From sequence record MW741821.1: 64,000 bases of DNA; one strand, 5' to 3'. Below are positions 24,602-37,812 of the stretch, one piece after another. Numbering within the stretch: position 1 is the stretch's first letter; every line of letters begins with the position of its first letter. This DNA is from Escherichia phage vB_EcoP_DE5. The notes under the pieces were generated by a model, which was not told where the DNA came from, ran no database searches, and saw only the letters and a list, made by a program, of their open reading frames with translations. Made by a program: the position numbers and the translations under genes.

Positions 24602-24856
24602 CTACGAAGTTAAGATGATTTCAGCCTTAATAAACTTCTCACCAACAACCATATCACCAGAGATGACACGTAGTTCTCCAGTGCCTAGGTTAACAGCTCC
24701 AGCAGGTTGACAACCCCTGCTTTTAGCTGTCATCATATAAACCTTTTGATTTTGGCACTCTTGGAGAGTGAACACATCTGACATATTTAGATCTCTGACG
24801 CGGAGGATTTTTTCCTCTTTGTCTTTAACTTTAATGTTAATAATGCTCATATGCAC
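24602..24856 (-). CDS. small protein, paralog family member
   Basis: 84 aa; tandem array, N-terminal K-rich segment followed by L..L..GDVF-like motif. Confidence 0.5.
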   Translation of the reverse strand: MHMSIINIKVKDKEEKILRVRDLNMSDVFTLQECQNQKVYMMTAKSRGCQPAGAVNLGTGELRVISGDMVVGEKFIKAEIILTS

Positions 24857-25101
24857 TACTCCTGAACCACTGACATACGAATCATTTCTACCTGATCATC
24901 AAGACCTTTAACAGATAACATACCTGTGGAAAGGTTTACCACAGGAACCCAACCACTGGCTATACGGATGTTACCAGAAGCATTTTCAACCCTCATGTAA
25001 TACTGAGGAGAGGCACTTCCGTTCTGAACCACGAAAGGGTTTCCGGGAATGATTGTTTCCAATCGTACCGTATTATCCTTTTTCTTTGGGATGATTTTCA
25101 T
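24856..25101 (-). CDS. small protein, paralog family member
   Basis: 81 aa; MKIIPKKKDNTVRLETIIPGNPF. Confidence 0.5.
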   Translation of the reverse strand: MKIIPKKKDNTVRLETIIPGNPFVVQNGSASPQYYMRVENASGNIRIASGWVPVVNLSTGMLSVKGLDDQVEMIRMSVVQE

Positions 25102-25349
25102 TGCGTATTATCCACCAAAAGTTCTGCTGATACAGGAACAACTCGGCACCAGATAGAAGGTGCTGTTACGTTACCATCGGATAGACGAAGAGTAATTGTT
25201 CGATCAGAGTTAACGGTTACATTAGGACTTTCAGACACAGACCCTTTAACATAGAGAGTAGCACTCTCAGGGAATTTAAACACTGCTCCGCTGGGGAGGG
25301 AGTTGAGATCAATCGTGGTCACTTCTTCTTTCTTGTGGGTAATCTTCAT
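25098..25349 (-). CDS. small protein, paralog family member
   Basis: 83 aa; MKITHKKEEVTTIDLNSLPSGAVF. Confidence 0.5.
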   Translation of the reverse strand: MKITHKKEEVTTIDLNSLPSGAVFKFPESATLYVKGSVSESPNVTVNSDRTITLRLSDGNVTAPSIWCRVVPVSAELLVDNTQ

Positions 25350-25600
25350 TTAGAATCCTTAATAACGTTAGCTTCAACCTTAACAGGAATAACAGAGATG
25401 CCCTCAACGGGGCCACTTAAGTGTCCATCTTCCAGTCTGACACACACGACTCGATCTCGTGCAACTTCTACCCAATTAGTAGATGCCGCAGTACAGACCA
25501 TATGAATTGGACCGTTCTCTTCCAGCCGGAAGGTATCGCCCTTCTTCAGAGTGTGGAGTTTCACAGTCTTGATAGTTTTGTTCAATTCGTTAACTTTCAT
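25346..25600 (-). CDS. small protein, paralog family member
   Basis: 84 aa; MKVNELNKTIKTVKLHTLKKGDTF. Confidence 0.5.
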   Translation of the reverse strand: MKVNELNKTIKTVKLHTLKKGDTFRLEENGPIHMVCTAASTNWVEVARDRVVCVRLEDGHLSGPVEGISVIPVKVEANVIKDSK

Positions 25601-25608
25601 ATTGATTC

Positions 25609-25920
25609 CTATTTAAGTTTGAGGCTAATGTTAAGGTGCATACATGCTCTGTTCTGTACAGCAGCATAACTTCTACCGAGCATGTCAGCCATTCTCTGAA
25701 TAGACATGAACCCAGCATTACGGATAAGGAACTGGTCCTCTTCTTCAGACCATTTAACTCGGATTGAAGCTCTTGATATGCCGAATTTAGTGCAAGCTGT
25801 GTTAACAGCATTCTCCGTTACATTCATAATCTGAGCTACTTCTTGAACCGAGTACTCTTTGATTAGTCTCCGAAGATTTTCAATCTGCATCGGAGTCCAT
25901 ATAGTTCTTCGTGCTTTCAT
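25609..25920 (-). CDS. DNA-binding protein with two tandem Myb/SANT-like helix-turn-helix repeats
   Basis: 103 aa; two W-[TS]-x-E-E-D...L repeats (RRTIWTPMQIENLRRL... and VKWSEEEDQFLIRNAG...). Confidence 0.5.
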   Translation of the reverse strand: MKARRTIWTPMQIENLRRLIKEYSVQEVAQIMNVTENAVNTACTKFGISRASIRVKWSEEEDQFLIRNAGFMSIQRMADMLGRSYAAVQNRACMHLNISLKLK

Positions 25921-26415
25921 ACATCCTCCAATTAATTGTTAAAACTATCAGGGGAGAACACTAGCTCTGGGCCACGCTGTAGATATTGGCCTACCTTCCA
26001 CAGCTAATCAGCTAATATACTCCCCTAATAGTTTATGAATAGGGGGAGGGGACGAATCCTCCCTTATCCTATTAGTTAATATTGCATGTAAGATCTAACA
26101 ATCGGTTGCCTTTGTAGGAATAAGCGTAAAGCCAATCCAGCACTAAACTCCCGCCCCCTTAGTGGGCTGGGTTATTAAAGGGTAACGCCCTTATGGGCTA
26201 GTTACATGAATGTTAGTTTGATAGGAGATCTGAAGTCCTATCTCAAAGGACTCTCGTAAGAATCCTTCACGATATTACTTATTCATCTCTCGTCGGCTAT
26301 CTCTCCAAGCCAACCAAGTGTAGGTTTTCAGTTCTTCAAAGTCTTCTGGAGAGAATAGATACTCTTTGAAGGTGTTCCCAAACCACTCTAAAAATTCTTC
26401 AGTCATAAGATTCTC

Positions 26416-26589
26416 TTAACAAGATTGGTCACACGGCTGATCACCACATGTTTTACAGATCACTGGTGAGTAACTACAGGCAGGATAAACAGACACCCCA
26501 TCAAACGTCTCACATCCACAATCAGGACATGTACCGTTGGATTCCATGTCATCATCGTCATCTACTTCACCGCCACCAAAACAACTCAT
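26416..26589 (-). CDS. small acidic Cys-rich protein
   Basis: 57 aa hand-translated (MSCFGGGEVDDDDDMESNGTCPDCGC...), AAGGAG SD; below track cutoff. Confidence 0.4.
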   Translation of the reverse strand: MSCFGGGEVDDDDDMESNGTCPDCGCETFDGVSVYPACSYSPVICKTCGDQPCDQSC

Positions 26590-26598
26590 ACAGGCTCC

Positions 26599-26820
26599 TT
26601 AGTAAACTAAACCTGTAGCCTTTGCATCAGGCTGAGGGACTACTTTTGCACTAGGGCGATAGCCATCCACTGAGCCGTTCCAAAGATTGACACAGGTGAT
26701 ATATCCATCGTCTATGATGTCTGTTTTAATCCAGAAGTGTTTATCATGACCAAAAATACTTCCGTTTGGCAGCGTGGACAATTCAACAGTTTTAAGTGAC
26801 TGCTTAGAGTCTAGTTTCAT
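26599..26820 (-). CDS. small protein, paralog family member
   Basis: 73 aa; MKLDSKQSLKTVELSTLPNGSIF. Confidence 0.5.
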   Translation of the reverse strand: MKLDSKQSLKTVELSTLPNGSIFGHDKHFWIKTDIIDDGYITCVNLWNGSVDGYRPSAKVVPQPDAKATGLVY

Positions 26821-33933: not shown

Positions 33934-34747
33934 CTTTCAATTGTAAGGGCGCTATTGCCCCGCTCTCTATGAGCTTGTTTAAGTCACTATTAACTTAACT
34001 ATAACCGCTAACTATTCAGTAGTTATAGGTAAGTGGGGCGGTCTTATCAGGAGTTAACCTTGCCGCCCCCTTATCCGTGATGTTTCATCTGGTATCTTTA
34101 ATTAGTCGCTATAAACGAAGCCGACCTGATAGCGATGATCAATCATCACAATAAGGCAGTGCGTCCGACTCTAATTAGTTACGTTATTGTAACCGTCGGC
34201 AATATCGTTTACTTTGCTTTCGCTCTCGCCTATCCTTTTATATCAACTCTCAATCGCTAGTCATCGCCCACTACGGGATACTATTGCGAAAGAGTCATTG
34301 ACCGTCTAATGTTCCGACGTTTTATATCTTTCGGCAAGTTTACTACATAAACCGACTATGTACTTTCATCATAAGATGAATCTCAAGCCGTTCACATCGT
34401 AAACGTTCACACTAAACCTTATTGTTAAATAGCAATTTGCCACTTTTTAACCACTCCCCGCCGCTCTCAATTGAGCGTTAATTCGTCGGGATTGCCTACC
34501 CTGATTAACTTCTTTCACCGTAGCACCATGTTAGCGATGACCGCCGCTACCCTTAACCGTGGGCGATTAGCTTAAGCCTTTGCGTGTACTCGATGAATCT
34601 GTTTATCAGTGGTGACGTTTCCAGTAAGGGAATGTAAAACTGTTTACCCTGATAATTTAGGGAGTTTTACGCCGTTTTATCTGGTATGTTATCCGATGGT
34701 TATTATCATCTAACATATTCAACCGATATAGGAGAATGTTTAAATTA

Positions 34748-35372
34748 TTAAAGAGCGGTAAATCTATCAGTGTGCTTTCTCACACTATGCAACTGTTAGC
34801 CGTTGTTACGCTTTTCACTGAAGCGATGATTTGCTTAGTGAGTGCTCATTATGAATCATGTTGTTTTCGCTGTCAACCGCTTTTTAATCTTTTTTCGTCG
34901 TTCCCGCTATTGGGAGGATATATCAATCAGCTTTATTTGATTGAAGATTAAGCGGTGAGGCTTAACTTATGACTCATATTGTTAAAGAGCGTTTAGCCTT
35001 TTAAAGTGTCTGCTAATCACTGTCACATTGAAGGCTTACTGATTCATTAACAGGCCGCCTACACCTGAACTAATCGCTGCACTATGTGCCACCTTTCCCG
35101 CGATACGTTGATTTGGGAACTAGTTAGCGATGTTTTGCTAACTTGTGGTTAGTATGGACTACTTTAACCACGTTTGCAACTCTTTTTATCATCTTCTTTT
35201 AATTCCTTTCCCTTATCTCGCGTGAATCTATGCGAAAGGGCAAGATGATAAGTTTTTAAAGAGCGGGATTTTTTAAGTCATCGCTGACTATGCTCACTAT
35301 ATATCAGGCTTTTTCTGGTGTCAATACTCTTTTTAAGTATTTTCACTTTCTAGCCTGATTTTTAAAGAGCGG
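34748..35372. repeat. four dispersed copies of TTAAAGAGCG(G) within an ORF-free region
   Basis: Copies at 34748-34758, 34982-34991, 35246-35256, 35362-35372; no ORF of 60 aa or more between 33950 and 35700 except one short frame. Confidence 0.55.
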
Positions 35373-35603
35373 GGCAAGTTTCCTTGCCTTGTATGTTTTT
35401 CATCGTACCCGATGAATTGAAGTATACGCCAACCAATGTGTAATGCAATAGGGTAAAGCAAATTATTTTAAACTTTTTCATAGTGGGATAGGTAAAAGAA
35501 CGCGCACGCGTGATACATCATAGAAAATAGCTTGTAAAGCATTATTTAACGGCCTGTAACGCATCACAACGAGCTAAAGGAGGGTAAGGAATACAATCAC
35601 CTT

Positions 35604-35632
35604 AGAAATGAGAAAAGCCTCACTAGGAGGCT
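35604..35632 (-). terminator. Rho-independent terminator (minus strand)
   Basis: Hairpin AGCCUC-CUAGUG-AGGCU followed by UUUCUCAUUUCU. Confidence 0.5.
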
Positions 35633-35709
35633 TACAGGAAGGATTTAAAGCAACAGATACAGTAGGACCATAGGCATGACTACGGCACAATATAGGAGAA
35701 AGATTAAGC

Positions 35710-36087
35710 CTATGGATTTACACATTGACCTAAACCGGACTCAATTTCATTCATGGACTCATCAAAGAGCGTCAACGATGAGCGCATCAAGTGATCTATC
35801 GTGATTTGTTTACCGGTAGTTTCATTTACCAGCAGAATAGCTTTGTTATCTGATTGCACATGATCAAAATCATTTACATGCAAAATAATAACTTTAGGTG
35901 ACTGTTTACCAGTTTCATAGTTTTCTATCAAATAGGTGCACTGTAAACTGTCAACCGTAGCAGGGGAGAACATTGCAGCCTTAACACTACCCATAGACGA
36001 TAGGAGAACGCCCAGCAGGAGAACGACAAGGAAGAAGCCCACGAATACTTTTACTACAAATTTGATAATACCCATGATAATAATCAC
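35710..36087 (-). CDS. membrane protein
   Basis: 125 aa; N-terminal transmembrane segment. Confidence 0.5.
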   Translation of the reverse strand: MIIIMGIIKFVVKVFVGFFLVVLLLGVLLSSMGSVKAAMFSPATVDSLQCTYLIENYETGKQSPKVIILHVNDFDHVQSDNKAILLVNETTGKQITIDHLMRSSLTLFDESMNEIESGLGQCVNP

Positions 36088-36172
36088 CTATAGTTAGAGA
36101 ATATAAGAATAAAGCATATCAGCGACGAATAACGCCACTGTAACGACGAACAAGCAACGCCAAAAATAATCA

Positions 36173-36448
36173 CTATTCATCGTTGCTATTCTCGCCAAAA
36201 AATGCTACGCTAATCTGTTCCACTTCTTCCAGCGACAGGAGAATCCCGCGTTGGGCTAAATACTTCCCAACAGTTAGATAATCTTGCACTAAACAGACAA
36301 TAGGAAAGCGTATATTTTGAATCTCACCTTTGGAAAGAAAAGACAAATATCCAACGTCGATTGATTCATCAAAGGACAATGTAACGCCACCGTAATTATG
36401 CGTATCAATTAACGCAATAGTTTCATTTCCCATTGGTATCATCCCCAA
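36173..36448 (-). CDS. hypothetical protein
   Basis: 91 aa ORF. Confidence 0.45.
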   Translation of the reverse strand: MGMIPMGNETIALIDTHNYGGVTLSFDESIDVGYLSFLSKGEIQNIRFPIVCLVQDYLTVGKYLAQRGILLSLEEVEQISVAFFGENSNDE

Positions 36449-36689
36449 TCAGACCATGATTAAGCAGGTTAGCCAGCGACAAATCACCGTCAATATAGAT
36501 TGATCTGAAATCATCGCGGGTAATTTCGAAATCAGCAAAGGCTAGCCAGTCTTTAAGAGGCTGATATTCCATCCTGCAAAAAGTGATAACAGGCAAGATT
36601 ATCTGACCATCAAGTGTATTAAACATGATAGAGCTTCCACCAACAAAACAAGAAAAACCGTTAGATAATTTAACTTCTTTAATAGCCAT
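36423..36689 (-). CDS. hypothetical protein
   Basis: 88 aa ORF. Confidence 0.45.
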   Translation of the reverse strand: MAIKEVKLSNGFSCFVGGSSIMFNTLDGQIILPVITFCRMEYQPLKDWLAFADFEITRDDFRSIYIDGDLSLANLLNHGLIGDDTNGK

Positions 36690-37207: not shown

Positions 37208-37421
37208 TTCGTTATTCCTTAGATAGATTCAATCAACTGTCATCAACTATATAATAAAGGAAAAGGCTGTCAACCATCTATTTTCTAACTTTCTTGCATC
37301 CTCCTGAAAACTAAAGGAATTTAATTTGCTAAACTTTCCATACTCAGAGAATCAGCTTACTTCTTATTGTTACTTTATAACACTACGGGTAACAGACCAA
37401 CAGACCAGGACAAACGGGGAT

Positions 37422-37812
37422 ACAACAACCGCAGGACAGACCACGGGGAAACATAGCAAGATAGTGCGGTAATAATATACCACTTAAATAATCATCAACT
37501 CATAAAAGAAAAGACCATTCGCTACGCTCATAAAGGCACGCTGAAAAAGAAAAGATTAAAAGAAATACAATCATCCACTTAATTAATACATACATCATTA
37601 TTGCACTCATAATCATTACTATTGAAACTATTTACATTCAAACTATGGGGGATGTGGGCTATTACTTATGGGTATTATTAGCCTCTTATGGTAGTGCCTG
37701 TACAGTGCTAGCCTTTCTCTCACTCTCTAAAGGGGAACTAAATAAACGGGTAGCTAATGAATAGGATGGTATACACGGGGAAAGAATAACGGGGAGTAGG
37801 CACGGGGAAACG
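37422..37812. repeat. five copies of (C)ACGGGGA(AA) in two clusters
   Basis: Copies near 37423, 37443, 37775, 37790, 37803; ACGGGGAAAC exact twice; track ORF 37686-37910 here is probably spurious. Confidence 0.45.

Follow-up and report, generated by a model that had tools for sequence, protein, structure and literature searches.

Bas90_0095, an early-region gene of a phiEco32-like phage, encodes a predicted tandem of two Myb/GcrA-like helix-turn-helix domains

The gene and its neighborhood

An open reading frame of 103 amino acids occupies positions 25609-25920 on the minus strand of the window, the whole 64,000-nucleotide stretch of Escherichia phage vB_EcoP_DE5 (MW741821.1) analyzed here. 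Its extent is exactly that given in the first-pass annotation. A 2-kb piece around the gene shows 100% identity to Escherichia phage SkaterBoy_Bas90 (PQ850626.1), where the gene is Bas90_0095, and 90-97% identity to many phiEco32-like podoviruses of the genus Kuravirus. The features of the gene and its immediate upstream region are as follows.

25609..25920, minus strand: coding sequence of 103 aa (Bas90_0095), ortholog of phiEco32 gp99/phi32_99, with a pI of 10.0
25925..25929, minus strand: GGAGG, a Shine-Dalgarno sequence that lies 4 nt upstream of the start codon ATG, seen directly in the letters
25921..26034, minus strand: variable leader between an RNA-like element and the gene, characterized by alignment, sliding identity and a promoter scan

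In the deposited record the product of Bas90_0095 is annotated as "transcriptional regulator; D5-like". The ortholog in the type phage phiEco32, gp99, is annotated only as a hypothetical protein, and some kuravirus records label the gp99-like gene 'endonuclease'. The homolog in Salmonella phage 7-11, AEK82031 (listed as SaPh711_gp116), has a record that itself notes similarity to phi32_99. In the papers on the phiEco32 group (phage 7-11, SU10) that the analysis covered, gp99/phi32_99 appears only as one row of a supplementary homolog table, paired with SaPh711_gp116. The gene is already annotated as a regulator and belongs to a common and known class of phage helix-turn-helix (HTH) DNA-binding proteins.

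The gene is real and under purifying selection, as judged from its GGAGG site, from its presence at 60% or greater amino acid identity in about 75 phage records (tblastn), and from a dN/dS of 0.03-0.26 in both halves of the gene (Nei-Gojobori, four orthologs). GGAGG or GGTGG occurs at the same site in Bas89, L009, 4E8 and phiEco32. The protein is basic, with a net charge of +7 (16 Lys plus Arg versus 9 Asp plus Glu). A stand-alone form of 101-104 aa is kept across Kuravirus, relatives of phage 7-11, and PKM.Lu.22.1, with identity falling to 33% in phage 7-11 and 41% in PKM.Lu.22.1. Since no homolog occurs in the related phage GAP52, nor near the conserved upstream element in Bas88, the gene is probably not essential to the core programme of these phages.

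The gene lies inside a minus-strand block of small genes that matches the early cluster of phiEco32, in agreement with its earlier assignment to the early arm. Directly downstream are four consecutive ORFs of 81-84 aa (Bas90_0091-0094; 24602-25600, minus strand). These four, together with an upstream 73-aa ORF (26599-26820), appear by eye to have the N-terminal pattern MK...T[VI].L..L..G..F in common, which suggests a paralog array. Copy number in this putative array varies among kuraviruses.

Two helix-turn-helix repeats and their relatives

Residues ~6-50 and ~55-100 of the protein align to each other with 30% identity over 43 aa (BLASTP, E = 4e-4), and the Smith-Waterman score between the two regions is reached by 2 of 5000 shuffles. 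The first-pass annotation had described two consecutive W-[TS]-x-E-E-D...L repeats. The presence of two repeats stands; the literal motif is found only in repeat 2, as W57-S-E-E-E-D. Repeat 1 reads W8-T-P-M-Q-I-E-N-L, and so retains the Trp, the Thr and the downstream Leu without the acidic run. The parts of the protein map to the window as follows.

25774..25902, minus strand: repeat 1, first three-helix HTH domain, residues ~7-49, from AlphaFold2 helices and alignment
25783..25815, minus strand: predicted recognition helix of repeat 1, residues 36-46 (ENAVNTACTKF), third helix of the first bundle
25756..25773, minus strand: basic inter-repeat linker, residues 50-55 (RASIRV), within residues 47-58 that are modelled without secondary structure
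25627..25755, minus strand: repeat 2, second three-helix HTH domain, residues ~56-98, with W-S-E-E-E-D and LGRSYAAVQNRA, from AlphaFold2 helices
25636..25668, minus strand: predicted recognition helix of repeat 2, residues 85-95 (YAAVQNRACMH), third helix of the second bundle

Structure prediction, set in advance as the check on the proposed fold, returns two HTH bundles. The AlphaFold2 model, with a mean pLDDT of 83.3, places helices at residues 10-22, 25-32 and 36-46 in a first three-helix bundle and at 59-68, 74-81 and 85-95 in a second, with a 12-residue linker between them. Each domain has about 50 residues and three helices, the second and third forming the HTH, as in Myb/SANT domains. 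The model and the sequence alignments, in which the family profile described below covers two c-Myb repeats, support a tandem of two tri-helical Myb/SANT-type HTH domains. The pTM of 0.50 leaves the relative orientation of the two domains undefined by the model, and for this reason the whole model finds no significant match in a Foldseek search of PDB. The top of that list, below significance, consists of tandem HTH proteins: Reb1, 2lvs, DUX4, SNAPC4, CDC5L and the Tc3/Mos1 transposases.

A Pfam search of the protein returns matches only to families of the HTH clan. Sigma70_r4_2 (PF08281) scores 31.2 bits, above its cut-off of 25.7, over profile positions 22-45 of 54 (residues 18-41), and HTH_23 scores 22.2 bits. 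Myb_DNA-binding (PF00249) reaches 21.6 bits, below its Pfam gathering cut-off of 24.4, and PF13921 reaches 14.5 bits, below its cut-off of 22.9. Some distant homologs do exceed the PF00249 cut-off (P0016, 30.9 bits; P0131, 33.1; P0025, 25.2). The best matches to the single sequence in PDB are weak, c-Myb at E = 0.007 and the Cef1 Myb domain at E = 0.015, both across both repeats.

A family profile was constructed from an alignment of 47 sequences from two database searches. Against PDB it finds 2lvs, an archaeal 105-aa CRISPR-repeat-binding protein with two HTH domains (E = 2.9e-9); c-Myb (E = 3.7e-9), in a tandem R2R3-like alignment that matches profile positions 10-99 to residues 61-156, two consecutive repeats; SNAPC4 (E = 4.6e-8); B-Myb (E = 3.3e-6); and the DNA-binding domain of GcrA (E = 3.5e-5; one repeat, 26.8 bits). 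The same PDB set results from a pooled profile of single repeats, with scores of 37 bits for 2lvs, 28 for the Myb-like domain of DMTF1, 25 for GcrA, and 12-14 for each c-Myb repeat. In the profile alignments, the predicted recognition helix of repeat 2 aligns with the recognition helices of c-Myb and GcrA.

Among phage protein families, the protein matches PHROG 323, 'transcriptional regulator, D5-like', with E = 1.2e-28 and 101.6 bits over profile positions 91-190 of 319. Two PHROGs of HNH endonucleases, 1891 and 8446, give weak matches. Searched exhaustively with HMMER, 1.84 billion cluster representatives from public genomes and metagenomes yield 1,708 proteins at E <= 1e-3 and 271 at E <= 1e-10. 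Many of the 1,708 repeat-bearing proteins are 300-880 aa long, with up to nine matched two-repeat stretches, and the Pfam matches of repeat-bearing cluster proteins are a mixture of Sigma70_r4_2, HTH_23, Myb, GcrA and IF2_N. Most neighbors in the viral structure library BFVD are phage proteins ~100-110 aa long, and among the neighbors are a Goslar "Myb-like domain-containing protein", a Brucella phage "GcrA-like cell cycle regulator", a Vibrio phage "D5 protein" and several endonucleases. The earlier view of this arrangement as more typical of eukaryotic proteins is therefore overstated, since the 1,708 clusters found with HMMER carry the repeat, T5 D5 and HNH endonucleases among them. The abundance of tandem Myb-like repeats in phage and bacterial metagenomes bears on the origin of the eukaryotic Myb/SANT fold.

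The homology of Bas90_0095 to HTH repeats of the Myb/GcrA/D5 type, shown by sequence comparison, is accompanied by clear differences from each of the better known proteins. Where c-Myb, B-Myb, WER and SANT have three regularly spaced Trp residues per repeat, Bas90_0095 keeps only the first (W8, W57). The second and third positions face aliphatic or small residues in HMMER alignments to c-Myb, and in the repeat profile no column except that of the first Trp is nearly invariant. In contrast to eukaryotic R2R3 Myb proteins, this is a phage protein without activation or other domains. Its N-terminal HTH is of the type that serves as the DNA-binding domain in the GcrA family (PF07750). GcrA of Caulobacter (PDB 5yiu), however, consists of one HTH plus a further region (the chain in 7ye1 has 173 aa), whereas Bas90_0095 has two HTH domains only. 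The C-terminal region of GcrA contacts sigma-70. Bas90_0095 ends at residue 103, after the second HTH, and because it lacks this C-terminal sigma-70-interacting domain it is not a member of the GcrA family; the Pfam search gives no match to GcrA. The most fitting label for it is that of a tandem HTH protein of the phage/prokaryotic Myb/GcrA-like kind; it is not a bona fide member of the Myb family.

In size and architecture the protein resembles archaeal 2lvs, where ~100 aa likewise make up two homeodomain-like HTH domains with a linker between them. Both the family and the single-repeat profiles have 2lvs as their best PDB sequence match, and it stands second in the Foldseek list; its PDB entry is titled as a CRISPR repeat binding protein. 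Thibault gp103, an HNH endonuclease from a mycobacteriophage, begins with the same two-repeat module (27% identity over 92 aa), each repeat having W/Y-T-x-x-E-D and LGR[SR]. It continues into a C-terminal HNH_3 nuclease domain, while Bas90_0095 has no Pfam match to any HNH domain. In Thibault (L007, 1497-3298) the gp103 gene lies between two short 'DNA methylase' ORFs, gp102 and gp105, as though a methylase gene had been interrupted by the insertion of a homing endonuclease.

T5 D5 (T5.118) belongs to PHROG 323 (E = 1.2e-71). The family profile aligns by hhalign to D5 residues 133-247 with 93% probability and E = 3.6e-7, a stretch made of two HTH repeats of the 'IA..(L/F)GR....V..(R/K)' type. 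Both proteins come from non-late genes of virulent coliphages. According to the T5 record, D5 binds DNA, is needed for both DNA replication and late transcription, and takes part in shut-off. The likeness is confined to the HTH repeats, at 12% identity (hhalign), and Bas90_0095 does not have the full-length D5 architecture: D5 is 255 aa long, with ~130 N-terminal residues that have no counterpart in Bas90_0095 and with a longer spacer between its repeats. Because homology is limited to the HTH repeats, the 'D5-like' annotation is a reasonable analogy, not a demonstrated equivalence.

Mosaic history of the gene and the conserved element upstream

The two halves of the gene differ in history. 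Nucleotide identity to phiEco32 is 48% over codons 1-56 and 97% over codons 57-103, with a breakpoint at the 3' edge of the linker, around codons 55-57. In repeat 1, synonymous sites are saturated with changes whichever phage is compared (pS 0.73-0.79), including Bas89 and 4E8, where only 8 of 56 repeat-1 codons differ. Repeat-1 alleles fall into at least three types: that of Bas90 and Bas89, that of L009, and that of phiEco32. For repeat 2, pS is 0.11-0.53 and the protein sequence is almost invariant in an alignment of kuraviruses; comparison with Bas89, L009 and 4E8 reveals 10-13 codon changes that are synonymous only and 3 amino acid changes. Repeat 1 thus has an older, mosaic history and is joined to a shared repeat 2, with both under purifying selection. 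This swapping of repeat-1 alleles against a constant repeat 2 is the one less ordinary feature of the gene.

The idea that the invariance of repeat 2 reflects unusual selection holds only in part. The near-identity of repeat-2 DNA to that of phiEco32 implies recent shared ancestry or recombination, and the ~10-12% nucleotide differences from Bas89, L009 and 4E8, nearly all synonymous, imply ordinary strong purifying selection. A modular specificity cassette, in which repeat 2 would serve as a constant anchor for a conserved half-site or partner while repeat-1 alleles are exchanged by recombination in the linker, strikes us as unlikely. If it were true, a monomeric regulator with two HTH domains would have one half of its recognition code swapped between phages, perhaps in competition among co-infecting relatives or in host-range tuning.

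The leader of the gene is also variable. Alignment and sliding identity show the Bas90 leader to be unlike that of Bas89, L009 and phiEco32. Those three have a T-rich tail and a promoter-like TTGAAT...TATATA segment, which in Bas90 (25921-26060, minus strand) are replaced by a different sequence of ~110 nt. The Bas90 leader can form a second hairpin, CTCCCC...GGGGAG; because this shares sequence with the 3' arm of the GGGAGG/CCTCCC hairpin before it, the two pairings are mutually exclusive. A direct repeat, TTAGCTGATTAGCTG, occurs there as well. A scan of 25300-26500 finds no consensus sigma-70-like promoter on the strand of the gene, and the gp36 promoter core, AATGTATA, does not occur near it. 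Autoregulation through a joint swap of repeat-1 allele and upstream leader was considered and rejected for lack of co-variation: Bas89 and L009 have the same leader with different repeat-1 alleles, and Bas90 and Bas89 have the same allele type with different leaders.

Between Bas90_0096 and the leader of the gp99-like gene lies an element of ~245 nt (~26035-26277, minus strand), whose start directly follows the Bas90_0096 stop codon. It is 94-100% identical in Bas90, phiEco32, Bas89 and one metagenomic kuravirus, while both flanks are mosaic. Copies occur at ~77% identity in the SU7/Bas87/Bas88 group and at ~88% in the PKM phages, which belong to Grimontviridae. G7C-like Gamaleyavirus phages, from the unrelated family Schitoviridae, have partial copies in the non-coding DNA that precedes tRNA genes. 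The element contains no ORF of 30 aa or more. It folds at -74 kcal/mol, better than shuffled controls (z = -3.3), and ends in a terminator-like hairpin, GGGAGGATTCGTCCCCTCCC, followed in most kuraviruses by a T-rich tail. RNAalifold, applied to a seven-sequence alignment, gives 37 pairs, 11 of them with compensatory double changes. A comparison to Rfam finds no family match. Viral contigs scanned with the invariant core of the element yield nine matches, eight of 69.9-77.6 kb and one fragment of 8.2 kb; these are consistent with the kuravirus and G7C-like groups and add no new diversity.

The element looks like an undescribed phage non-coding RNA and is put forward as a candidate. It is not tied to gp99, since it precedes a different gene in Bas88 and an unrelated 103-aa ORF in the PKM phages. 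It deserves evaluation of its own and is of more interest than the gp99-like gene. In PhAPEC7 (L014, 1537-1659) a 40-aa 'hypothetical protein', gp54, is annotated wholly inside the element; it is probably a spurious gene call, because compensatory changes occur in the stems of the element, as do indels of lengths not divisible by three.

Proposed function and alternatives

The reading we favor, and consider fairly probable, is that Bas90_0095 is a small, basic, early-arm protein with two HTH domains that binds double-stranded DNA as a monomer and modulates early transcription or possibly replication. The protein consists of two predicted Myb/GcrA-type three-helix domains, a short basic linker, and nothing else, and it would be made from the early gene cluster, transcribed by host sigma-70 RNA polymerase. 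By analogy with c-Myb R2R3 and archaeal 2lvs, a monomer would set its third helices (residues 36-46 and 85-95) into adjacent major grooves and recognize an asymmetric site of ~10-12 bp. The effect, at an early stage of infection, would be on how phage or host DNA is transcribed or possibly replicated, a role akin to that recorded for the distant relative T5 D5. DNA binding, recognition by two helices of a monomer, a regulatory role and the nature of the target are all put forward by analogy with such systems, and the part of helix 36-46 in contacting DNA is assigned from its likeness to Myb and GcrA.

Points on both sides bear on the proposed DNA binding. In its favor, the HNH-fused form of the two-repeat module in other phages would have that module as its DNA-targeting part. 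Against it, the predicted recognition helices have few basic residues, and certain Myb/SANT domains, such as those of CoREST and Cef1/CDC5L, have protein or RNA as their ligand instead of DNA. A search for a candidate operator finds none, and the repeat-1 allele and the adjoining upstream sequence do not vary together.

The binding of T5 D5 to DNA is cooperative and non-specific. Bas90_0095 could likewise be a D5-type coating protein, whose non-specific or cooperative binding, spread broadly, would serve shut-off of host or early genes or serve replication. Its placement with D5 in PHROG 323, the hhalign alignment, the roles recorded for D5 in T5, the high pI of the protein and the failure to find a specific repeated target all fit this view. 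The homology covers only the HTH repeats, however, leaving the long N-terminal part of D5 without a counterpart, and a near-invariant repeat 2 combined with old and distinct repeat-1 alleles fits a specific interface better; we judge a coating role fairly unlikely. We give less credence to the view that the gene is the orphaned DNA-binding module of a homing endonuclease, whether as a remnant in decay or, once domesticated, as a fragment binding (and perhaps protecting) what used to be a homing site, without any regulatory role. It is prompted by the N-terminus of Thibault gp103 and the position of its gene between two methylase gene fragments, the weak PHROG 1891 and 8446 matches, the 'endonuclease' neighbors in BFVD, the 'endonuclease' label in some kuravirus records and the location of the gene in a mosaic region. 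Decay is hard to square with the low dN/dS, and the stand-alone form is retained at identities as low as 33%, with no nuclease domain or fragment adjoining the gene. We consider this reading decidedly unlikely.

Action on RNA polymerase, with the protein as a mimic of sigma region 4 or a GcrA-like sigma-70 cofactor that redirects the host enzyme, is highly improbable. The Sigma70_r4_2 match spans the HTH core only, the C-terminal domain of the GcrA type is missing, and when RNA polymerase purified from cells infected with phiEco32 was analyzed by mass spectrometry, gp36 and gp79 alone were found with it (PMC12276001). A sigma-factor or sigma-mimic reading of that Pfam match was rejected, the match being to the HTH core alone. 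The NCBIfam sigma matches all fall far below their cut-offs. Neither Pfam nor NCBIfam gives a match to sigma region 2 (or 3); the 103 residues are filled by two HTH domains, so there is no room for regions 2 and 3, and lacking region 2 the protein is not a sigma factor. The least probable of the proposals, which we hold to be very remote, is that the protein binds RNA, for example the structured element upstream. The Myb domains of Cef1/CDC5L contact RNA in the spliceosome and are found among the sequence and fold neighbors of Bas90_0095, and the gene lies directly downstream of the element in every kuravirus examined. The element nevertheless occurs with no neighboring gp99 homolog in Bas88 and PhAPEC7 and with a different gene following it in the PKM phages, while phage 7-11 has a gp99 homolog and no detectable element within 3 kb on either side.

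To our knowledge, gp36, a sigma factor, and gp79, an inhibitor/co-activator, are the only phage factors of the phiEco32 transcription programme that are known in detail. If it does bind DNA, a conserved early protein would add a third candidate for the control of that programme. The gp99-like gene is one of the few early genes also present in the distant phage 7-11, and the target of Bas90_0095 could explain part of early-gene control or host shut-off.

The first-pass annotation had also proposed that the protein may bind one of three repeated motifs, TAGTACTA, ACGGGGAAA or TTAAAGAGCGG. No such link was found; the vicinity of the gene is free of all three, and no result connects them with it. 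TAGTACTA is not enriched, with 3 sites against 1.33 expected, a count that 10 of 100 shuffles reach. ACGGGGAAA is not enriched window-wide; four sites cluster at 37414-37810, in annotated coding sequences. All four fit ACGGGGA[AT]A and lie within 400 nt of one another; two take the form GTA..CACGGGGAAA and are 27 nt apart. Coordinate conversion places the cluster inside Bas90_0126 and Bas90_0127. TTAAAGAGCGG, allowing up to one mismatch, is enriched, with 6 sites against 0.92 expected, five of the six within 34748-35372. The local clusters of ACGGGGAAA and TTAAAGAGCGG are 9-12 kb from the gene. The TTAAAGAGCGG cluster falls within, and at the edge of, a stretch of ~2 kb without an annotated gene (~34658-36628), 9 kb from Bas90_0095. 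Four of its five sites belong to an 18-nt direct-repeat family, [AT]TT.TTAAAGAGCG[GT], with spacings of 234, 274 and 106 nt, and the cluster could be an origin or a promoter cluster.
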